Source: Candidatus Limnocylindria bacterium (GTDB lineage Bacteria; Patescibacteriota; Saccharimonadia; Saccharimonadales; JAGQNK01). Taken from it: a stretch of 64,000 nucleotides of DNA. The stretch is from contig DATHJH010000004.1 in NCBI GenBank assembly GCA_035489815.1, forward strand, positions 2,131 through 66,130. Direction: 5' to 3'. Shown in pieces: positions 11,103-21,776 of the stretch; within the stretch, counting starts at the first letter, position 1; every line of letters starts with the position of its first letter. The translations under genes and the position numbers were made by a program. The notes below the pieces were generated by a model. It was not told the origin of the DNA. It saw only the letters and a list, made by a program, of their open reading frames with translations, and ran no database searches.

Positions 11103-11777
11103 ATGCCGGCTAAAAAAACAGCAAAGGTAGCTCAGCCCACAAATCTAAAAGTTGCAGCTAGTAGCACGCCAGGTGTGCCAACCCGGACACCGGGCAAACT
11201 GCAAAAATATTTCCCCTGGGCGCTTGTCACCGGCGGACTGATTGGCCTGGTAGCCGCGTTTGTACTGATGGTAGAAAAGGTTGCGGTGCTGAAAGATCCC
11301 ACCCATGTGCCTTCCTGCAATATCAACCCTATCCTGGCCTGCGGTTCGGTTATTGACACGCCGCAGGCAAGTGCCTTTGGCTTTCCTAACCCCATGCTGG
11401 GGCTCATTGGCTTTACAGCCGTCATTGTCGTAGGCGTCAGTTTGCTTGCCGGCATGCGGATTGCCAAAGCCTGGTACTGGCGGACGTTCTGGGCAGGCAC
11501 TATCTTTGGCGTTGGGTTTATTCACTGGCTGTTTTTTCAAAGCGTTTACCGGATTGGCGCACTCTGCCCCTACTGCATGGCAGTCTGGGTCGTAACCATT
11601 CCGATTTTTTGGTACACAACCCTTTGGATGTTCCGGGAAGGACACTTACCCACACCCCGGGGCTGGGACAGGACGGTTGCCTTTGCCACCGTTAATCACC
11701 TGGGCATTCTGCTAAGCTGGTACCTTGTAATCATTGGGCTCATCCTGTATCACTTTTGGTACTATTTTGGCATATGA
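11103..11777 (+). CDS. Vitamin K epoxide reductase (VKOR) family membrane protein
   Basis: The Cys pair C..N....C in the first loop (SCNINPILACGSV), the CxxC motif (CPYC) in a TM helix, and four or five TM segments. Confidence 0.8.
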   Translation: MPAKKTAKVAQPTNLKVAASSTPGVPTRTPGKLQKYFPWALVTGGLIGLVAAFVLMVEKVAVLKDPTHVPSCNINPILACGSVIDTPQASAFGFPNPMLGLIGFTAVIVVGVSLLAGMRIAKAWYWRTFWAGTIFGVGFIHWLFFQSVYRIGALCPYCMAVWVVTIPIFWYTTLWMFREGHLPTPRGWDRTVAFATVNHLGILLSWYLVIIGLILYHFWYYFGI

Positions 11778-14271: not shown

Positions 14272-14344
14272 CTTGAGGATTAGTATACTGCTTATGTCCC
14301 CGTGGTAACAGAGCACTCAATTCTACTATGTCGTAGGCCAAAGA

Positions 14345-14390
14345 AACTGTACTCTAAATATGTCCGGCCGGACAGGTTTTGAGTACAGTT
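14345..14390. repeat. Family A palindrome, copy 2 (imperfect)
   Basis: The sequence is aactgtactctaaatatgtccggccggacaggttttgagtacagtt. It has the same core as copy 1 and lies just 3' of the yajQ-like gene. Confidence 0.8.
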
Positions 14391-14415
14391 TGGCACCATG
14401 ACTGATCGAACTCTG

Positions 14416-14913
14416 CTATCGATAATTTGTGAAGTTCAGCGGGAAGTCGAAGTCCTTTGACTTTATAAGCTGCATGACGGCCTGCAGGTCGTCTTTGCTG
14501 CCGCTCATAACGCGTACGGCATCGCCCTGAATTTGCGTCTTGATCTTGGGCAGTTCATCCCGGATGAGCTTGGTCAGCTGTTTGGCTTTGTCCTGGTCCA
14601 GGCCTTGTTTAAACAGTACTTCTTTGGTGGTCTTCAGATTGCTGGTCACGGATTCTTTAGAGGCATCCAGGACTTTTTGCGATTGCCCGCGGGTGGCCAG
14701 TTTTTTACGAAAGATATCCAGGATTGCGTCTATTTGCCAGTCGCCGCTGCCCGTCACTTTGATGCCGGTTTTCTCTGCATTCAGCCACTCCAGCTCTGCC
14801 GGAGTGCCCTTAAAGTCGTAACGGCTGGTGATCTCCCGCTGTGTTTGGTCAAAGACGTTGTTCATCTCTGCCTTGTCGTATTCCGAAACAATATCAAATG
14901 AAAAGTTAGCCAT
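14416..14913 (-). CDS. yajQ: YajQ-family nucleotide / cyclic-di-GMP-binding protein (UPF0234)
   Basis: MANFSFDIVSEYDKAEMNNVFDQTQREITSRYDFKG...NFTNYR matches the YajQ family end to end. Start at MANFSF (14913). Confidence 0.85.
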   Translation of the reverse strand: MANFSFDIVSEYDKAEMNNVFDQTQREITSRYDFKGTPAELEWLNAEKTGIKVTGSGDWQIDAILDIFRKKLATRGQSQKVLDASKESVTSNLKTTKEVLFKQGLDQDKAKQLTKLIRDELPKIKTQIQGDAVRVMSGSKDDLQAVMQLIKSKDFDFPLNFTNYR

Positions 14914-14967
14914 GGTTAGTAGGTTAGTTTTACTCCAGTTGCTTCTGCCACTTTTATGATCCATTGC

Positions 14968-15162
14968 TCAAGTCGATCTACCTTGTGCGCCAGCATCATC
15001 ATCTCCTGCATATACTACATCGGCCTTTTTGGCATACGCATCCACTGCGTTTGTTAGTGTGTCCAACTCTTTTTTTGTCGCCGTTTGCTCAAGCTGATCG
15101 TTTACCTTTTTGAACTCCACCTGCATATACTTGAAAAGCTTGGTAAATTGATCTTCACTCAT
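14968..15162 (-). CDS. Small coiled-coil hypothetical protein (64 aa)
   Basis: Starts at MSEDQFTKLFKYMQ. TACAAT (minus strand, 15174-15169) lies 6 nt upstream of ATG 15162. The ORF-track extension to 15315 would run through the pheS promoter and start. Confidence 0.4.
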   Translation of the reverse strand: MSEDQFTKLFKYMQVEFKKVNDQLEQTATKKELDTLTNAVDAYAKKADVVYAGDDDAGAQGRST

Positions 15163-15206
15163 TTGTCTATTGTAACACCCATCTATAGGATATAATGAAA
15201 CGCAAT

Positions 15207-16259
15207 ATGCAGTATGAAAATCAGAAGATTGTTGACGTTGCTGAAGTACTGAAGGCACGGATGGATCAAGCAAAAAACAAGGCAGAAGTGCTAAAAGCCG
15301 TGGAGCTAAAAGCACTCTATGCGGAAATCCCCACTTTACCCGCAGACCAGCGAGCTGGGTTTGGCAAAGAAATCAACCAGCTAAAAGCAGAGCTGGAGCA
15401 ACAAATTGCCGGGCATCAGGAAAATGATGAACAGTTACCGCCAATAGATGTCACTGCACCATTTGACGTCAACGTCGGCGACAAAAAGCCGCAGCTGCTG
15501 CCATCAGAAACCGGCAGCAAGCACCCGCTCATGAGCGAATTGGATAAAGTACTGGATATCTTTGGTCGGATGGGCTTCACACCCGTAGAGTCACGTCAAC
15601 TTGACGATGAATATCACATGTTCAGTTCGCTGAACTTCCCAGAGGGGCATCCGGCCCGCGACGACTACGATACCTTCATGACCAAGGAAACAGACAAAAA
15701 TGATCATCCATTTGTGGCCCCGGCTCATGCGAGCGTGATGCAAAACCGACTGCTGCAGCAATACAAAGGCAATCTGGAAAAGGGCGAACCCATAAGTGCG
15801 GTATATGCCGGCAGAACCTTCCGTAATGAAGATGTTGATGCCCGGCACGAACATACGTTTTATCAGGTGGAGCTGATGTATGTCGACAAAAACGTTCATG
15901 CGGGTAATCTCGTAGCTGCCTTCAAGACCTTCCTGGAAGAATATTACGGCCAGGAATTAGAGGTTATGAGCCAGCCGTTCTACTTTCCGTTTACCGAACC
16001 AAGCTTTGAGCTTGCACTCAGCTGTCCATTTTGCAAGAAAAAGGGCTGCAACGTCTGTAGTTACACCGGCTGGATAGAGCTGCTGGGTATGGGTATGGTG
16101 CATCCCAACGTACTCAAAATGGGCGGTATTGATCCGACCAGGTACACTGGTTTTGCCGGTGGCATGGGCTTGGACCGGCTGGTGATGATGAAATACGGTA
16201 TAGAAGACGTTCGCAACTTCCACTCCGGCAAGCTAGAATTCCTCAGGCAGTTTGCATGA
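15207..16259 (+). CDS. pheS: Phenylalanine--tRNA ligase alpha subunit
   Basis: Class II aaRS motifs are present (HPARDDYDTF, RTFRNEDVDARHEHTFYQVE, GFAGGMGLDRL). ORF-track ATG 15195 lies inside TATAAT 15191-15196, so ATG 15207 is preferred. Confidence 0.9.
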   Translation: MQYENQKIVDVAEVLKARMDQAKNKAEVLKAVELKALYAEIPTLPADQRAGFGKEINQLKAELEQQIAGHQENDEQLPPIDVTAPFDVNVGDKKPQLLPSETGSKHPLMSELDKVLDIFGRMGFTPVESRQLDDEYHMFSSLNFPEGHPARDDYDTFMTKETDKNDHPFVAPAHASVMQNRLLQQYKGNLEKGEPISAVYAGRTFRNEDVDARHEHTFYQVELMYVDKNVHAGNLVAAFKTFLEEYYGQELEVMSQPFYFPFTEPSFELALSCPFCKKKGCNVCSYTGWIELLGMGMVHPNVLKMGGIDPTRYTGFAGGMGLDRLVMMKYGIEDVRNFHSGKLEFLRQFA

Positions 16260-16864
16260 ACAAAGACAAGCCGGTTATATATGCCTTCATAGACAGTCAA
16301 AATTTGAACCTTGGTGTTCGCTCACAAGGTTGGAAGATGGACTACAAAAAATTTCGACTATACTTAACGAACAAGTATGGCGTGACGAAAGCCTACATGT
16401 TCATAGGCATGGTTGCAGGCAATGAAGGTTTATATCAAACCCTCCAAGAGGCCGGGTTCATTCTTGTTTTCAAGCCGACTGTTCAGTATTTCGAGGACGG
16501 CAAAGAAACTGTAAAAGGCAATGTCGATGCCGAACTAGTATTGCATGCCGCGGCAATTGAATATCAGAATTATACTAAGGCTATCATCGTGACAGGCGAT
16601 GGTGACTTCCGATGTCTCGTTAAGTTTCTGGCTGCTAAAAACAAGCTGCTCAATGTCATGGCGCCGAATAGGTATTTCTCGAAACTCCTAAGAGAGTATT
16701 CTGGCTACATTATTCGTATAGACTTACTCAAAAAAGAATTAGAGTACAAAAAACGCCGGGATCGGCGGTCGGTCGAAACCTTAGGCCTACCCGGACATGG
16801 TGATACAAAGAGAATTATAGCAAAGAAGGCCACGAAGAACAAGAAGAAGCGGAGTACTAAATGA
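16256..16864 (+). CDS. NYN-domain (LabA/PIN-like) putative ribonuclease
   Basis: IYAFIDSQNLNLGV...VDAELVLHAA...IIVTGDGDFRCLVKFL matches the NYN acidic-residue pattern. The start overlaps the pheS stop (ATGA). Confidence 0.75.
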   Translation: MNKDKPVIYAFIDSQNLNLGVRSQGWKMDYKKFRLYLTNKYGVTKAYMFIGMVAGNEGLYQTLQEAGFILVFKPTVQYFEDGKETVKGNVDAELVLHAAAIEYQNYTKAIIVTGDGDFRCLVKFLAAKNKLLNVMAPNRYFSKLLREYSGYIIRIDLLKKELEYKKRRDRRSVETLGLPGHGDTKRIIAKKATKNKKKRSTK

Positions 16865-17193
16865 GCTTGCAAGAACTACAGCATCGTGCACTTGAAGTTG
16901 CTAATCATTACGATGAGTACAATAGGCTTGCCAGTCACAAGGCATGGGATGTTCGCGATTATGTTTCGGGCTTGGTAGGAGACGTAGGCGACTTGGTAAA
17001 AGCCACCATGGCTATGGATGGTCGCCGTGATATGCCGGCTGCTGCAAAAAAAGTTGAACATGAGTTAAATGACATTATGTGGTCGCTTCTGCTGCTGTAT
17101 AAAATGTATGGGCTTAATCCAGACCAGTCTTTCTTGGATGCGATGAGCACATTGGAAAAAAGAGTAGTATCTATGAAAGAGGGTCTGGCATGA
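16861..17193 (+). CDS. MazG-like all-alpha nucleotide pyrophosphohydrolase
   Basis: About 110 aa, helical. The segments GLVGDVGDLVKA and KVEHELNDIMWSLLLL resemble the MazG-like metal-binding helices. ATGA-coupled to the NYN gene. Confidence 0.6.
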   Translation: MSLQELQHRALEVANHYDEYNRLASHKAWDVRDYVSGLVGDVGDLVKATMAMDGRRDMPAAAKKVEHELNDIMWSLLLLYKMYGLNPDQSFLDAMSTLEKRVVSMKEGLA

Positions 17194-17468
17194 GCAAGGT
17201 TATAGAGAAAAAGATCCGTACAGACTATTTTGACCAGGTTAAATCCGGTCAAAAGACTTTTGAACTGCGGCTTGCTGATTGGGACTGCCAACCGGGTGAT
17301 GTACTGGTACTCAAGGAAGTCGACATCAACGGCCAATACACCGGCCGGTCTCTTCGTAAAAAAGTTGGTTTTATAGTCAAAACCAAAGAGCTTGACTTCT
17401 TCACCCCACAAGAAATTGAAGAACACGGTTATCAAGTAATTTCTCTGTTGGAAGAGGGTGCGGCATGA
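17190..17468 (+). CDS. ASCH-fold protein (DUF3850-like)
   Basis: KIRTDYFDQVKSGQKTFELRLADWDCQPGDVLVLKEV....YTGRSL matches the DUF3850/ASCH beta-barrel pattern. ATGA-coupled on both sides. Confidence 0.65.
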   Translation: MSKVIEKKIRTDYFDQVKSGQKTFELRLADWDCQPGDVLVLKEVDINGQYTGRSLRKKVGFIVKTKELDFFTPQEIEEHGYQVISLLEEGAA

Positions 17469-19948
17469 AAATTAGTCTGAATTGGGTCAAGCAGTTTACG
17501 GACATTGATTTGTCTGTTGATGAGTTAGTCACAAAAATTGGCGCGCAATTGGGAGCGGTCGAAGAGGTTATTGATCTGGGGGCAAAGTACAAAGACGTTG
17601 TCATTGCCCAGATTGTTGAGAAAAAGGATCACCCAAATGCTGACAAATTGGCTATCTACCAAGCACAAGTCGGCCGTGAAGAGCTGGTGCAGGTGGTGTG
17701 CGGTGACAAAAACCTTCAGGTAGGCGACAAAGTGGCTTGGATTCAGCCCGGAGCGGTTGTACCCAGTACCCACGACAAGGAACCCTTCACTATGGAGGCC
17801 CGGCCGCTGCGCGGCGAGGTCAGCAACGGCATGTTCGGCAGCGGCGCAGAACTACTGCTGAATGACAATCACGGCAGGGTGGTAGCCCTGGACACACCGG
17901 CCGACCCTGGCACATTGTTTGCGGATGCCTATGAACTAAACGATTTCATTGTAGATATAGAAAACAAGATGTTCACCCACCGGCCGGACTGCTTTGGTAT
18001 TTTGGGTGTGGCCCGGGAAATTGCCGGCATCCAAAACAGTGCCTTCAAATCGCCAGACTGGTACCTGAAGTCCCTGGACCGGGTGAAACCCGGCAAAACC
18101 AAATTGCCGCTGGACGTCCGCAACCAGGCCGGCGAATTGGTCCCGCGGTTCATGGCTGTAGCCATGGCAGATGTCAAAATGGGCGACAGCCCGCTCATAA
18201 TTCAGTCATACCTGAGCCGTGTGGGGCTGAAGTCTATTAATAACATTGTGGATGTCACTAATTATCTGATGATACTGACTGGCCAGCCTTTGCATGCCTA
18301 CGACTACGACAAGGTGAAAGAGCGCAGTGGGGACATGCCGGTCCTGATTGCCCGAAAGGCCGGAGCAAAGGAAAAAATCAGGCTGCTAAATGGTAAAGAG
18401 ATTGCCTTTGACGACCCCGCCATACTCATTGCCACCGACAAAGAACCGATTGGCGTCGGCGGCATCATGGGCGGTGCGGATACTGAGGTGGACGAAAATA
18501 CCAAAAACATTATTCTAGAGTGCGCCAACTTTGACATGTACTCCATCCGCCGCACTGCTATGAAGTACGGGTTGTTTACCGATGCGGTAACCCGGTTCAA
18601 CAAAGGGCAGAGTCCCTTGCAGAATGACATTGTGCTGGAGGAGGCTGTTGCCACTGTGCAGTACGTTAGCGGCGCGCACGTTGCCAGTGATGTATTCGAT
18701 GTAAAAACCCAGCTACAAAAACCGGCGCCAGTAAAAGTTACAAACGGCTTTATAAATGTGCGGCTGGGGCTGGATTTGCCTGCAGAGGACATGGCCCGGT
18801 TGCTGGAAAATGTGGAGTTCATGGTAGATGTCCATGGTGATGAATTGTCGACCGCGCCGCCATTTTGGCGCACAGATATTGAAATCCCGGAGGACATCGT
18901 CGAGGAAGTCGGACGACTGTATGGCTTTGACCATTTGCCGGTAGTATTGCCAAAGCGCACTATCAAGCCCGCCCAAAAGGACAATTTGCTTGATCTAAAA
19001 ACCAGGATCCGCGATGTCCTGGCCAAAGCCGGTGCCAACGAAGTCCTGACCTACAGCTTTGTCCACGGCAACTTGCTGGACAGGGTAGGCCAGGACAAGA
19101 CCAAGGCCTTCGAGCTCAGTAATGCCCTGAGCCCGGACCTCCAATACTATCGCCTCAGCCTGACGCCAAGCCTGCTGGAGAAAATTCACCCCAACATAAA
19201 GGCCGGCTATGATGAATTCGCTATTTTTGAAATTGGCAAAGTGCACATCAAAGGCCTTTTAGATGACAAAAACGGCGAAAACGTGCCCAGAGAGCTTAAC
19301 CGCATTGCCTTGGTTTTTGCCGCCAGCCCTAAAGCCCAAAAATCCTACCAAGGCGCAGCATACTACCAGGCCAATACGTACCTGCACAAAGTTCTAAACA
19401 CGTTCGTCGGGCAAGGGGCACTCACCATGAAGCCTTTGCATGAAGCCGACTTTGGCGAACACCTCCTCATACAACAAATGACGACACCCTATAACCCAGA
19501 GCGGGCAGCAGTGCTTGTCAAAAATGATCTGGTTGTTGGTGTAGTGGGTGAGTACCGAACTGACGTAGCAAGGAGCCTCAAGCTGCCTGCATACACTGCT
19601 GGTTTTGAGATATTTCATAGTTTCCTCATGGCCGACCCGGCGGAGCTGTATACACCAATTTCAAAGTTTCCGAAGGTTGAACAGGACATTTCTTTGAAGG
19701 TTTCCGGAGACCAACCATATCAGCCGCTGTTTGATGAGCTTTTGGCCGGGCTGCACGAACTATCAGATGAAAACCTAAAAACCAGTCTCATGCCTCTGGA
19801 TATTTATAAAAAAGACGGGAACAAGCACTTCACCTTCCGTCTCTCTGCTGCTCACTACGGCAAAACACTAAAAGCCGCAGAGATAAACCAGCTCTTGGAC
19901 AAATTAGCCGACCGGGCCAAACAAAAGTTCAACGCCGAAAGGATTTAG
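17465..19948 (+). CDS. pheT: Phenylalanine--tRNA ligase beta subunit
   Basis: N-terminal tRNA-binding domain (HPNADKL..VVCG), then B3/4, B5 and FDX-ACB-like regions, at the typical length of 827 aa. Confidence 0.9.
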   Translation: MKISLNWVKQFTDIDLSVDELVTKIGAQLGAVEEVIDLGAKYKDVVIAQIVEKKDHPNADKLAIYQAQVGREELVQVVCGDKNLQVGDKVAWIQPGAVVPSTHDKEPFTMEARPLRGEVSNGMFGSGAELLLNDNHGRVVALDTPADPGTLFADAYELNDFIVDIENKMFTHRPDCFGILGVAREIAGIQNSAFKSPDWYLKSLDRVKPGKTKLPLDVRNQAGELVPRFMAVAMADVKMGDSPLIIQSYLSRVGLKSINNIVDVTNYLMILTGQPLHAYDYDKVKERSGDMPVLIARKAGAKEKIRLLNGKEIAFDDPAILIATDKEPIGVGGIMGGADTEVDENTKNIILECANFDMYSIRRTAMKYGLFTDAVTRFNKGQSPLQNDIVLEEAVATVQYVSGAHVASDVFDVKTQLQKPAPVKVTNGFINVRLGLDLPAEDMARLLENVEFMVDVHGDELSTAPPFWRTDIEIPEDIVEEVGRLYGFDHLPVVLPKRTIKPAQKDNLLDLKTRIRDVLAKAGANEVLTYSFVHGNLLDRVGQDKTKAFELSNALSPDLQYYRLSLTPSLLEKIHPNIKAGYDEFAIFEIGKVHIKGLLDDKNGENVPRELNRIALVFAASPKAQKSYQGAAYYQANTYLHKVLNTFVGQGALTMKPLHEADFGEHLLIQQMTTPYNPERAAVLVKNDLVVGVVGEYRTDVARSLKLPAYTAGFEIFHSFLMADPAELYTPISKFPKVEQDISLKVSGDQPYQPLFDELLAGLHELSDENLKTSLMPLDIYKKDGNKHFTFRLSAAHYGKTLKAAEINQLLDKLADRAKQKFNAERI

Positions 19949-19950
19949 CC

Positions 19951-21776
19951 ATGAGGCTCGCTATCCTCCTCCGTCATTCCGGGCTTGATGCGGAATCCAG
20001 TCAAAAACGAACAAACTGGATCCCGCATCAAGTGCGGGATGACATCGGGTGGAAACTTGGCCTGATACTTGCGGCACTCTTGTTTTGTTTGACCGTCCCC
20101 GCAAAAGTTCATGCTGACGTGAATGACTTTGTCGTTCACGATTTTCATGGCCGCTATGAACTCAGCAAGGATGTACATGCCGGCAAGTTGGCCGTGACAG
20201 AAACCATCAAACTGACTTTTTCTGACCAAAACCACGGCATAGAGCGAGCCATTCCGGTAGATTACCGGGGCAGTTTGCTCAAGCTGGACATAAAATCAGT
20301 CACACGGGACGGCCAGCAGGAAGACTACACCACCTACCGCCAGAGCAATAACCAGGTGCTGCGGATTGGTGATGCCGACAAAACCATCACCGGCCAGCAT
20401 GCCTACGAGATCAAATACGAAATGCGAAACATCATCGACTTTTACAGCGAATACGATGAATGGTACTGGGACATAAACGGCGACCAGTGGCAACAGCCGT
20501 TCGAAAGGTCAGCGGTGAGGTTATTATGCCTGCCGGCTGGCAAGTTGAAGGCATCCCCAGTGCGTCCTGCTACACTGGCAAGTTCGGAAACACACAATCT
20601 GTTTGTGACATCACCAGAACGGCGACCGGCTATACGTTTTCAGCACGAGGGCCACTGGGCCCCGGCGAAACGCTGACAGTTGCAACGCCCTTCCAGAAAG
20701 GCTTGTTTACTCCGCGGGACCGCAGCGATTGGTACCGTGAAAACGCCTGGCAGTTCGTAGGCTTGGCGGTTGGAGCGAGCCTGAGCTACCTGGCCTTCAG
20801 GCAGTGGTGGCGCTGGGGCAAAGACCATAAGGGCCGGGGAGTCATCATCCCGGAATACCAAGCGCCAAAGGGTTTGACCCCCGCCGAGGCGGGACTACTC
20901 ATGGACTATTCCGTCGATGGCAGAGACCTCACGGCAACCATCATTGACCTGGCTGTCCGCGGGTTCATCAAAATCCACGATACAGAGAAAAAGACCCTTG
21001 GCCTGTTTAAGTCGCATGAATTCAGCCTGGAACTTGTAAACGACAAAGCGGGCTCTTTGAAATATCACGAAAAAAAGCTGCTGGAAGCACTCTTCAAGCC
21101 ACTCGCAAAAGGTACGATTCAAAAAATAAAAGACATCAAAAAAGCAGAAATGCACACCGCCGTGACCGATATTCGCAGCAAGCTGAAAACTTCGCTGACC
21201 AAAGAACACGGTATGTTTGAGGAAGCGCCATTGAAAGCCCAGGTCATCCTCTGGTCGCTTGGGATCGGAGCCTTTGCTTTGTTATTTATTGTACGGCCGG
21301 GCTGGGGGTGGATAGTCGGCTTGGCGGCAGCAGGCGTCAGCGCCGTTGGGTTTGGATTGCTCATGAAACGCCGCTCCCATGCCGGGGTTGCCGAATACGA
21401 AAAGATCAAAGGCCTGAAACTGTACATGGATACCGCAGAAAAGGACCGGCTCAAAATGATGCAGAGCGTCGACCGGCCGTACGCCGAACCATCCAAAACA
21501 GTAGATCTATTCGAAAAACTCCTACCCTTTGCCGTAGCTCTGGGCGTCGAAAAGTCCTGGTCAAAACAGTTTGAAAACATCTACCGCGAACCGCCCGGCT
21601 GGTACAGCGGTAACTATGCGGCTTTCAATACGGTGTACTTTGCCAGCAGCTTAACCAGTGGAATCTCCACGTTTAATTCCAGCTTCTCGGCATCAACCTC
21701 ATCATCCAGCTCTGGCAGCGGAGGTGGCGGCTTCTCCGGCGGCGGAGGAGGAGGTGGAGGCGGCGGCGGTTGGTAG
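19951..21776 (+). pseudogene. DUF2207-family membrane protein, split by a 1-nt deletion in an A-run
   Basis: ORF 19951..20676 ends its conserved part at ...EWYWDINGDQWQQPFE. ORF 20460..21776 continues with KVSGEVIMPAGW..., then TM helices and a C-terminal poly-Gly tail (GGGGFSGGGGGGGGGGGW) typical of DUF2207. The frames join at gaaagg, 20503-20508. Confidence 0.75.
19973..20043. repeat. Pair of inverted C-type hairpin units (gtcattccgggcttgatgcggaatccagt ... actggatcccgcatcaagtgcgggatgac)
   Basis: Read directly. The unit type is the same as the one embedded in family E and B elements. The pair lies inside the first 31 codons of ORF 19951. Confidence 0.8.

Follow-up and report, generated by a model that had tools for sequence, protein, structure and literature searches.

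Three small genes between pheS and pheT of a Saccharimonadales bacterium: probably one filling of a hypervariable accessory-gene slot

Results

Layout of the operon and its junctions

The DNA analyzed here is a 64,000-nt stretch (the window) from a Saccharimonadales bacterium (Saccharibacteria), in which three small genes separate pheS from pheT, the genes for the alpha and beta subunits of Phe-tRNA ligase. Are these genes parts of a dedicated system, or are they neighbors by chance? The operon consists of five co-directional ORFs on the plus strand: pheS (15195..16259; 354 aa; PF01409 E = 1.5e-71, TIGR00468 E = 1.4e-68), an NYN/LabA-like nuclease gene (16256..16864; 202 aa), a gene for a MazG-like all-alpha NTP pyrophosphohydrolase with a predicted DCTPP1/iMazG-like four-helix bundle (16861..17193; 110 aa), an ASCH/DUF3850 gene whose product has a PUA-like fold (17190..17468; 92 aa), and pheT (17465..19948; 827 aa; TIGR00472 E = 1e-167, five Pfam domains matched). 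pheS and pheT form the left and right borders of what we call the slot.

Four ATGA overlaps join the ORFs on the plus strand, at 16256..16259 (pheS stop, NYN start), 16861..16864 (NYN stop, MazG-like start), 17190..17193 (MazG-like stop, ASCH start), and 17465..17468 (ASCH stop, pheT start); both the overlaps and the coordinates of the three genes are exactly as a preliminary description of this DNA had them. Clear SD-like motifs precede three of the four starts by about 8 to 12 nt, namely GGAG at 16851-16854 for the MazG-like gene and GAGGG at 17179-17183 and 17454-17458 for the ASCH gene and pheT, and the NYN start has a weaker AGG (16245-16247) within the pheS 3′ end. Independent initiation is thus possible, and the "obligatory co-translation" earlier read from the overlaps was an overstatement. 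The overlaps are no chance curiosity, since 4-nt overlaps are frequent in relatives both at unoccupied pheS-pheT junctions (23 of 30) and at junctions within occupied slots (89 of 133). Promoter- and terminator-like sites in the window's operon did not exceed shuffled expectation, and none was found on the plus strand within the insert.

Two sequence features accompany the layout. A 20-nt direct repeat on the plus strand (17174..17193 and 17449..17468; 17 of 20 positions identical) exactly flanks the ASCH gene, with 13 of the 16 nt upstream of the ATGA matching, compared with a background frequency of 0.18%. The nearest ASCH homologue likewise ends in ...SLLEEGGI, so the ASCH tail may be native; the repeat is probably convergent SD and tail sequence and not a target-site duplication. 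Just past the pheT stop lies a long, perfect-looking hairpin without a U-run (19973..20043, plus strand; MFE −60 kcal/mol for 19940-20060, z = −7.8), which has a sub-threshold Rfam match on the minus strand only and is possibly the 3′ boundary of the operon.

Fold and predicted active sites of the three proteins

The NYN protein matches Pfam PF01936 (58.9 bits, cut-off 24.2, E = 1.1e-15) and PDB 2qip (E = 3.9e-7), the LabA-like NYN protein VPA0982. Its NYN domain spans residues 11-153; the C-terminal tail beyond it is basic and conserved (RRSVETLGL...KKKR). The AlphaFold model (pLDDT 84) finds its best matches in 2qip (TM 0.79) and in MARF1 NYN domains (TM 0.68-0.70), and residues D13, N16, D91, E93, D115, and D117 are invariant among 27 to 28 homologues. 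On this model, the protein has a PIN-like fold with conserved acidic active-site residues and is predicted to be a ribonuclease. Fold and acidic residues are common to LabA-like NYN proteins (2qip) and the MARF1 endoribonuclease domain, to which the window protein adds the conserved basic extension of about 45 aa. Its family is very large and Patescibacteria-wide (more than 7900 matches at 60-75% identity); we know of no characterized member.

The middle protein falls below the threshold of Pfam MazG (PF03819; 12.9 bits, cut-off 22), a family that 10 of 15 close homologues match weakly (best E = 6.5e-4). Its AlphaFold model (monomer, pLDDT 95) is a four-helix bundle, for which the top 50 Foldseek PDB matches are without exception all-alpha NTP pyrophosphohydrolases, with DCTPP1/RS21-C6 the best (TM ~0.71); a profile search against the PDB returned weak, mostly MazG-type matches (5ie9, 4qgp, and 3cra). 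The motifs GLVGD41VGD44L and E66-H-E68-L-N-D71 supply a predicted metal-binding pattern on helices 2 and 3, D41-x-x-D44 and E68-x-x-D71 (expected ExxE ... ExxD), and these acidic residues align to EExGE and EELGD of 5ie9. Of these residues, E68 and D71 never vary, D41 shows at least 90% conservation, and 23 of 24 sequences carry D or E at position 44. By modeled fold and predicted metal-binding residues, the protein belongs to the MazG-like all-alpha NTP pyrophosphohydrolase superfamily. With DCTPP1/RS21-C6, YpjD, Bacillus MazG 5ie9, and AF1178, it shares a four-helix bundle of about 110 aa (TM 0.6-0.72) and acidic pairs spaced i, i+3 on two helices (D41/D44, E68/D71), but it differs from known members in its sequence identity of just 11-22% and sub-threshold Pfam score, in a first acidic pair that is Asp-Asp where aligned MazG-type proteins have Glu-Glu, and in an invariant His67. 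The family is small, with 400 clusters at 50% identity.

The ASCH protein matches PF12961 (61.9 bits, cut-off 22.9, E = 6.5e-17), PF04266 (25.3 bits, cut-off 21.2, E = 2.5e-5), and PDB 3iuw (E = 3e-7); the PUA-like fold and the GxKxxExR motif, here G20-x-K22-T-F-E25-L-R27, are common to it and the ASCH superfamily (PDB 3iuw). All 25 homologues compared share G20, K22, R27, D30, G36, D37, T51, G52, and R53, and most of them have E or D at position 25. Within the superfamily, E. coli YqfB is reportedly an N4-acylcytidine amidohydrolase and a Zymomonas ASCH protein is said to be an ssRNA ribonuclease. The window protein belongs to a minimal DUF3850 branch of about 90 aa, also frequent in phages, for which we know of no activity. 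Thus, profile matches bear out the earlier NYN and ASCH/DUF3850 calls, and the MazG-like call holds by four-helix fold and PDB matches but not by Pfam MazG; predicted catalytic or metal-binding residues are conserved in all three proteins.

Slot content across relatives

The window PheS is 62-78% identical to PheS of the 80 best-matching species, almost all of them Saccharibacteria/Saccharimonadales. We compared 78 relatives with both borders on one contig, all of them species-level representatives at this PheS identity and metagenome-assembled genomes throughout. Of these, 30 have nothing between pheS and pheT and 48 (about 60%) have an occupied slot, with one gene in 32, two in five, three in six, four in three, five in one, and six in one. 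The 83 cargo genes all lie on the operon (plus) strand and fall into 23 families and 25 architectures. HIT-like genes are found in 16 of the 78, MazG-like in 10, PNPOx in 9, 23S-rRNA-IVP-like in 7, NYN in 4, and ASCH in 1; further families are RidA, SDR, GDSL lipase, NUDIX, methyltransferase, cupin, cyclase, FlavRed, c10, and DpnI. Nucleotide-handling families seem to dominate the cargo (MazG-like, HIT-like, NUDIX, nucleoside-deoxyribosyltransferase-like, and dCMP/cytidine deaminase), which fits an organism living on salvaged nucleotides. DUF5674 and c5 occur six times each and always together (6 of 6 slots); they are a truly linked pair, and NYN, MazG-like, and ASCH look like chance neighbors.

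The trio recurs in a single species, L047, in the same order and at 59, 59, and 51% identity. L047 is not the nearest neighbor of the window in a rough PheS+PheT tree, so inheritance or transfer of the trio as a block is possible. Elsewhere, the slot has the closest ASCH and NYN homologues next to different genes or as its only cargo. Genes of the trio occur in arrangements such as NYN-MazGl-PNPOx (L005), MazGl-NYN-c10-FlavRed-PNPOx (L010), MazGl-GDSL-SDR (L011), MazGl-DpnI (L009), ASCH alone (L176), and seven-gene arrays that include ASCH-MazGl (L174) or begin with NYN (L177). The neighboring junctions vary too (YajQ-pheS in 44 of 64 loci, pheT-FKBP in 46 of 50), so gene flux is general in the region and the pheS-pheT slot is not unique.

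Base composition also sets the insert apart. Whole-gene G+C is 42.9% for NYN, 45.0% for MazG-like, and 44.1% for ASCH, against 49.4% for pheS and 51.1% for pheT, and the 1205-nt insert, at 44.0%, lies in the lowest 0.3% of windows of the same size (mean 52.0%, sd 2.7%). In 52 of 56 loci, cargo G+C is below that of pheS and pheT; the mean difference is 4.4 points (Wilcoxon p = 1e-10). The preliminary description was right in the direction of this shift; its figures were off, the shift extends from NYN to the whole insert, and the 65% given for pheT reflects a local 100-nt peak (maximum 67%).

The locus thus combines conserved flanks, variable content (25 architectures in 78 species), and deviant composition, as flexible slots do. 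We consider it likely that Saccharimonadales have a lineage-wide, hypervariable slot for accessory genes at the pheS-pheT junction and that the trio is one particular filling of it, not a dedicated three-part system, because in relatives this gap ranges from 0 to 7 genes, which represent more than 20 families. The surveillance or conflict module envisaged earlier is not what synteny in the 78 species revealed: 0 to 6 genes, 23 unrelated families, and the trio in L047 only, close to the arbitrary, unrelated spacer genes that the preliminary description had itself named as counterevidence. We found no published description of a pheS-pheT gene slot in Saccharibacteria, and the slot is apparently an undescribed locus.

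Copies of the pheS tail inside slots

In 11 relatives' slots, copies of the 16-nt pheS 3′ tail stand at internal junctions. The corresponding motif, GAGGCA[AG]TTnnn[AGT]TGA, occurs 68 times at pheS ends, 11 times inside slots, and 0 times in the other 1.26 Mb. The gene behind such a fossil tail belongs to a family found directly behind pheS elsewhere (PNPOx, c10, MazGl, DUF5674) or is pheT itself. These fossil tails suggest that new genes enter directly behind pheS and that the tail is duplicated in the process; the window has no fossil tail, so there the mechanism is put forward by analogy.

Discussion

The ancestral state of the junction is pheS and pheT overlapping by ATGA, and about 60% of related species have received small genes at this point; these all follow the orientation of the operon, and new 4-nt overlaps join most of them. 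Cargo would be transcribed from the pheS promoter and translated by coupling or from SD motifs within the 3′ end of the gene upstream. The individual cargo genes may each encode an independently useful small enzyme; in the window, these would be an endoribonuclease (NYN), a DCTPP1-like NTP pyrophosphohydrolase that clears noncanonical (d)NTPs (MazG-like), and a protein with RNA or modified bases as its ligand or substrate (ASCH). Content would change as single genes are gained and lost, with the fixed DUF5674-c5 pair as the exception, a new gene entering directly behind pheS with duplication of the tail (stop, SD, spacer, ATGA). Natural competence has been described in Saccharibacteria (PMC10633639), and exchange probably takes place in naturally competent cells, where the conserved pheS and pheT flanks would recombine.

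A bolder version, which we regard as doubtful, makes the 16-17-nt pheS 3′ tail (TGAGGCAATTnnnATGA: out-of-frame stop, SD, spacer, start) a recombinase-independent attachment site that yields a cassette array free of integrase and attC. Single-gene units between two connector copies could loop out and re-insert by short-homology recombination, and species could exchange units by way of the pheS and pheT flanks once natural transformation had brought them in. If true, an essential tRNA-ligase operon would contain an integron-like cassette array that lacks integrase and attC alike, and through this array Saccharimonadales would draw on a common pool of genes for nucleotide salvage and house-cleaning.

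Other readings assign the trio, or the cargo as a whole, a joint role. Selection might have kept the three genes as a dedicated module expressed with PheRS, in which, for example, NYN degrades RNA, the MazG-like enzyme hydrolyzes aberrant or modified (d)NTPs, and ASCH recognizes or processes modified bases. Action on RNA or nucleotides is plausible for all three, the order NYN-MazGl-ASCH is found again in L047, and NYN adjoins the close MazG-like subfamily in the window, L005, L010, L013, and L047 and lies one gene away in L045. Counted by slots and ignoring kinship, NYN accompanies the close subfamily in 6 of 12 and the distant one in 0 of about 17, and of the 4 slots with ASCH, 3 (the window, L047, and L174) have it beside a MazG-like gene, although most of these loci were found by searching with those very genes. 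We nevertheless judge such a module unlikely. MazG-like stands alone in L030, L034, L036, L044, L052, and several metagenome loci, ASCH stands alone in L176, and NYN lacks both partners in L020, L070, L177, and L180. The order varies (NYN-X, X-NYN, X-HIT-NYN, X-ASCH, ASCH-X), and the trio is found in just 1 of 78 species, whereas the truly linked DUF5674 and c5 share every slot in which they occur. Outside Saccharimonadales, MazG-like homologues are unlinked to pheST, have a DHH-DHHA2 phosphoesterase as commonest neighbor (9 loci), and have neither NYN nor ASCH nearby. Aminoacyl-tRNA synthetases produce Ap4A, and aminoacyl-adenylates are hydrolyzed by HIT enzymes; cargo might accordingly serve PheRS by clearing aminoacylation by-products (Ap4A, aminoacyl-adenylates, PPi-linked nucleotides) or by processing tRNA-Phe. 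The commonest cargo does consist of nucleotide hydrolases (HIT-like in 16 of 78, MazG-like in 10 of 78, as well as NUDIX), whose expression would be matched to that of the subunit genes between which they lie. But 30 of 78 relatives do without cargo, PNPOx, GDSL lipase, SDR, cupin, cyclase, and DpnI have no conceivable link to PheRS, NYN is also inserted in an ABC-transporter operon (between the Wzm-like and Wzt-like genes in L180), the neighboring nonoperonic junctions are equally variable, and of the HIT profile, just the N-terminal two thirds align with the HIT-like protein. A service to PheRS is very improbable on this evidence.

The fast turnover of content and the low G+C could mark an antiphage defense or conflict hotspot, with the trio as an undescribed defense system. 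A methyl-directed restriction enzyme of DpnI type is encoded in the L009 slot (PADLOC mREase_II, E = 1.7e-90), NYN has a weak partial match to the PADLOC NYN model (E = 8e-8), and ASCH/DUF3850 has phage homologues (PHROGs matches; 18 phage records). Yet DpnI is the only strong match among 13 cargo proteins compared with PADLOC, the MazG-like and ASCH proteins have no PADLOC match at all, and NYN and MazG-like proteins are unmatched in 50,697 phage records. Cargo families mostly encode small enzymes of metabolism or house-cleaning (HIT-like, PNPOx, RidA, SDR, GDSL, NUDIX, methyltransferase), and among the genes called within 10 kb there was no integrase, transposase, or multigene defense architecture; we give a defense hotspot hardly any credence. 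The inserted genes could also be functionless neutral hitchhikers that decay after chance insertion, given their patchy distribution, their low G+C, and a 24-aa ASCH fragment (79% identical) in L016 at 11233-11304. This is quite unlikely, as cargo ORFs aligned by tblastn are full length and free of stop codons across species at 50-75% identity, active-site residues are invariant, translational-coupling junctions are kept, and seemingly empty gaps proved to hold intact genes after proper start-codon calling.

An exchangeable slot, the reading that we prefer, has practical consequences. Annotators need not take a tightly coupled trio in an essential operon for a "system", and comparative synteny tells real modules from chance neighbors. 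The slot is an easily recognized locus at which reduced-genome, epibiont Saccharibacteria keep changing small accessory enzymes, many of them nucleotide-acting. Fossil pheS tails offer a concrete, testable hypothesis of how an operon can gain genes and keep its translational coupling intact, and the slot could be a natural "landing pad" for genetic work in naturally competent, cultivable Saccharibacteria.

Several known arrangements resemble the slot. An integron cassette array was considered and rejected: the slot ORFs overlap by 4 nt and leave no room for attC hairpins, the only three inverted repeats found in the insert are weak (85-87% complementary) and do not lie at a gene boundary, and no intI integrase is among the genes called within 10 kb. 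The likeness lies in units of one gene each that share an orientation and probably depend on an upstream promoter for expression, and in a short sequence repeated at some unit boundaries; in the slot, unlike in integrons, this boundary is a pheS-derived connector of stop, SD, and start. iMazG (PDB 2q5z and 2q73), the integron-borne MazG of Vibrio DAT722, is one of the proteins that the MazG-like protein matches in structure. With the flexible genomic islets or integration hotspots of Proteobacteria pangenome studies, the slot shares conserved flanks, variable content, lower cargo G+C, and plausible exchange by homologous recombination in the flanks. Unlike these islets, it has no integrase, tRNA, or transposase nearby and lies inside an operon, between the subunit genes of one essential enzyme; its cargo consists of single small co-oriented genes, mostly joined by 4-nt overlaps, lacks promoter or terminator signals of its own in the window, and serves mostly house-cleaning or metabolism, not defense or virulence. 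Phage morons are extra genes between conserved genes of lambdoid phages, with their own promoter and terminator. Like morons, the slot genes are extra genes of lower G+C between two genes that are adjacent in relatives; unlike morons, they seem to depend on the host operon, here an essential operon of the cell.

A three-gene insert between pheS and pheT

In the window, pheS (15195-16259, 354 aa) and pheT (17465-19948, 827 aa) are separated by an NYN nuclease gene (16256-16864, 202 aa), a MazG-like gene (16861-17193, 110 aa) and an ASCH/DUF3850 gene (17190-17468, 92 aa). The five ORFs all lie on the plus strand and, as the preliminary description had proposed, overlap at every junction through an ATGA stop/start. 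SD-like GGAG or GAGGG motifs are found 8-12 nt 5′ of three of the four starts, within the preceding gene; at the NYN start there is a weaker AGG only. Promoter-like and terminator-like matches across 14300-20700 were no more frequent than in shuffled sequence, and no plus-strand terminator was found inside the insert. Directly 3′ of the pheT stop, a hairpin (19973-20043) with a stem of ~27 bp but no U-run is not a canonical terminator; the minimum free energy of 19940-20060, which spans it, is -60 kcal/mol (z = -7.8). An Rfam search in and around the operon returned nothing credible, the sub-threshold, minus-strand match of mir-1954 to this hairpin being surely spurious. An antisense ORF (16959-17435, 158 aa) has no Pfam match and lies opposite two genes with conserved homologues; it was treated as a shadow ORF.

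The insert has a G+C content of 44.0%, compared with 52.0 ± 2.7% in windows of the same size (lowest 0.3%), and its GC3 of 43-49% is below the 55-60% of pheS and pheT. The low G+C first noticed in hand-counted samples thus holds for the whole insert, whereas the 65% reported for pheT reflects a local peak in a gene that averages 51%.

Downstream, two ORFs that differ in frame and share 217 nt divide DUF2207 (19951-21776) between them: the N-terminal domain is in 19951-20676, and DUF2207_C is in 20460-21776, which ends in a long tail of Gly and Ser. In L009, one of the relatives compared below, both domains belong to one gene of 611 aa. A frameshift, a pseudogene or an error in assembly may account for the split in the window. 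At NCBI, proteins identical to the window's are labeled 'Candidatus Limnocylindria bacterium' (Chloroflexota); nearly all of the PheS relatives are Saccharimonadales, as is the gene order, and the MAG is probably mis-binned or mislabeled. A few relatives also carry odd labels (Bacillota, Verrucomicrobiia, Burkholderiaceae).

Domain assignments of the three proteins

All three domain calls of the preliminary description were upheld. The NYN protein matches Pfam NYN (E = 1.1e-15) and PDB 2qip (E = 3.9e-7), and its AlphaFold model (pLDDT 84) superposes on 2qip with a TM score of 0.79 and on the MARF1 NYN endoribonuclease domains with ~0.7. Residues D13, N16, D91, E93, D115 and D117 are invariant in 27-28 homologues, and the C terminus carries a conserved RRSVETLGL motif followed by a basic tail. 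In Patescibacteria this is a very large family, with >7900 matches at 60-75% identity.

For the MazG-like protein, nothing in Pfam scored above threshold, and the assignment is correct by fold and motifs. A word index retrieved 16 homologues and an exhaustive profile search 400 clusters. The model is a four-helix bundle (pLDDT 95). Every one of its 50 top-ranking PDB matches is an all-alpha NTP pyrophosphohydrolase, among them DCTPP1/RS21-C6 (TM 0.71), iMazG, YpjD, Bacillus MazG and E. coli MazG. Its conserved acidic pairs, D41/D44 and E68/D71, align to EExGE and EELGD of the MazG-type structure 5ie9. The third protein matches PF12961 (E = 6.5e-17) and PDB 3iuw (E = 3e-7), and its homologues retain the ASCH/DUF3850 motif GxKxxExR.

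The pheS-pheT slot varies among relatives

We compared the window with its best 80 relatives by PheS among GTDB representatives (one genome per species). Nearly all are Saccharibacteria/Saccharimonadales, with PheS identities of 62-78%. At each locus, the end of pheS and the start of pheT were located and the intervening DNA was annotated; slot statistics cover the 78 loci where one contig carries both borders. The two genes are adjacent in 30, overlapping by 4 nt in 23 and by 1 nt in 4 of these, and in the other 48 loci one to six genes occupy the slot. All 83 cargo genes lie on the operon strand, and within occupied slots a 4-nt overlap joins the genes at 89 of 133 junctions. Cargo G+C is below that of pheS/pheT in 52 of 56 loci (mean gap 4.4 points, p = 1e-10).

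The cargo falls into 23 families in 25 architectures. HIT-like genes are commonest (16), followed by MazG-like (10), PNPOx-like (9), 23S-rRNA-IVP-like four-helix protein (7), DUF5674 and the unannotated family c5 (6 each, always paired in that order), NYN (4), SDR and nucleoside-deoxyribosyltransferase-like (NDT-like; 3 each), and SAM methyltransferase, NUDIX, RidA and a 50-aa Cys-rich protein (2 each). ASCH, GDSL lipase, dCMP/cytidine deaminase, cyclase, cupin, serine hydrolase and DUF900 occur once each. The slot is dominated by nucleotide-handling enzymes. Neither c5 (~110 aa, no Pfam match) nor the IVP-like protein is a disguised MazG relative (hhalign probability <1%). DUF5674 followed by c5, in the slots of L022, L038, L040, L053, L079, L084 and L138 and in 6 of 6 cases of the unbiased sample, looks like a true two-gene unit. 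The slot of L009 holds a DpnI-type methyl-directed restriction endonuclease (2201-2827; PADLOC mREase_II, E = 1.7e-90) that, unlike other cargo, is set off by long spacers of 226 and 159 nt.

Between species, cargo genes align over their full length without stop codons in tblastn, so that slot gaps do not represent cargo pseudogenes, with one ASCH fragment left over. This fragment (L016, 11233-11304), the only clear remnant of decayed cargo seen, encodes 24 aa that are 79% identical to the N terminus of the window's ASCH protein, in a 31-aa ORF between NUDIX and methyltransferase genes.

Homologues of the three genes keep changing partners

The preliminary description had suggested that the trio forms an RNA or nucleotide surveillance or conflict system. 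Comparison did not support this: the trio recurs in one of the 78 loci (L047, followed there by the 50-aa Cys-rich protein), and the synteny across relatives is variable. Loci found by protein search place close MazG-like homologues always between pheS and pheT, with differing partners: NYN-MazG-like-PNPOx (L005), NDT-like-MazG-like-IVP-like (L007), MazG-like-DpnI (L009), MazG-like-NYN-c10-flavin reductase-PNPOx (L010; c10 is another cargo family), MazG-like-GDSL-SDR (L011) and HIT-NUDIX/MTase-MazG-like-NYN (L013). The two closest ASCH homologues on long contigs, 73% identical, also occupy the slot, one alone (L176) and one in the seven-gene series IVP-like-PNPOx-PNPOx-ASCH-MazG-like-GDSL-polyketide cyclase (L174). 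The closest long-contig NYN homologue (L177) heads a seven-gene array without MazG-like or ASCH genes.

NYN accompanies the close MazG-like subfamily in 6 of 12 slots, and MazG-like accompanies ASCH in three of the four ASCH-bearing slots. We nevertheless regard a functional link within either pair as unlikely. Instead, the three proteins would be an RNase, a nucleotide-pool sanitizer and a protein that binds RNA or modified bases, each working on its own.

In L180 (4566-5389) and L181 (3014-3837), the ABC2_membrane (Wzm-like) permease and ABC_tran/Wzt_C ATPase genes of a transporter operon are separated by a 70%-identical NYN gene plus a 70-aa ORF, again with overlapping junctions. Other two-subunit operons may thus also take up NYN genes between their partner genes. 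Outside Saccharimonadales, the MazG-like family occurs away from pheST in genomes of 34-71% G+C; its commonest neighbor there is a DHH-DHHA2 phosphoesterase just upstream (9 loci). Tandem MazG-like pairs (tblastn match ~630 nt) were seen there in other metagenome loci, L132, L140, L149, L151, L161 and L170.

Copies of the pheS tail at internal junctions

PheS ends in L-R-Q-F-x, and the last 16 nt of its gene, GAGGCA[AG]TTnnn[AGT]TGA, supply an SD and a start codon for the gene that follows. We counted this motif 68 times at the ends of pheS, 11 times at internal slot junctions (L005, L009, L010, L012, L040, L053, L079, L084, L138, L144 and L165) and not once in the 1.26 Mb that remain of the loci. 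Several internal copies contribute, through the TGA of TGAGG, the stop codon of the cargo gene before them. Because the CAATT past this stop codon is free of coding constraint, the best explanation for the internal copies is that they are pheS-tail fossils. The gene 3′ of a fossil belongs to a family seen directly behind pheS elsewhere (PNPOx, c10, MazG-like, DUF5674) or is pheT itself, and inserted blocks carrying a fossil have direct repeats of at least 16 nt on both sides. In L040 and L084, the copy lies directly 3′ of the DUF5674-c5 pair. New genes would thus enter directly behind pheS, duplicating its tail, and exchange could proceed via the conserved pheS and pheT flanks in naturally competent cells. 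Saccharibacteria are naturally competent (PMC10633639).

No fossil pheS tail was found in the window. A 20-nt direct repeat (17/20 identical) flanks its ASCH gene and is the best among 63 flanking pairs compared. A target-site duplication is disfavored: such pairs show no general enrichment, and SLLEEGGI is likewise the C terminus of the nearest ASCH homologue. Convergence of SD and tail sequence is the probable origin of the repeat.

Origin and nature of the slot

Several other origins were considered. An integron is contradicted by the lack of attC-like structures and of an integrase among the genes called within 10 kb, and a defense island by negative PADLOC results for the 13 cargo proteins searched, apart from the DpnI-type enzyme of L009. 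Against a phage source, 50,697 phage records gave no NYN or MazG-like match; the ASCH protein has phage relatives, all distant. IMG/VR yielded two NYN matches at 53-54% and three at 24-28%, and one MazG-like match at 40%. Cargo identity to the window does not track PheS identity (NYN versus PheS, 44% versus 73% in L010 and 72% versus 67% in L177), a pattern that either paralogy or transfer may explain, and we do not adopt recent horizontal transfer as the reading. We think it probable that the Saccharimonadales pheST operon contains a hypervariable accessory-gene slot and that the trio represents one of its states.

Variability is not unique to this junction. The YajQ-pheS (window 14965-15194), trehalase-YajQ and pheT-FKBP spacings are variable in most genomes, with differences of kilobases among relatives, and the order NUDIX-FKBP-Grx-TrxR (glutaredoxin, thioredoxin reductase) is stable; across Saccharimonadales, flux of genes between core genes in conserved order seems to be widespread. 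Our literature search found no publication describing the pheS-pheT slot. As a flexible region between core genes, it is of a kind already known; it is distinguished by lying within an operon for two subunits, with cargo genes that are strictly co-oriented and coupled.
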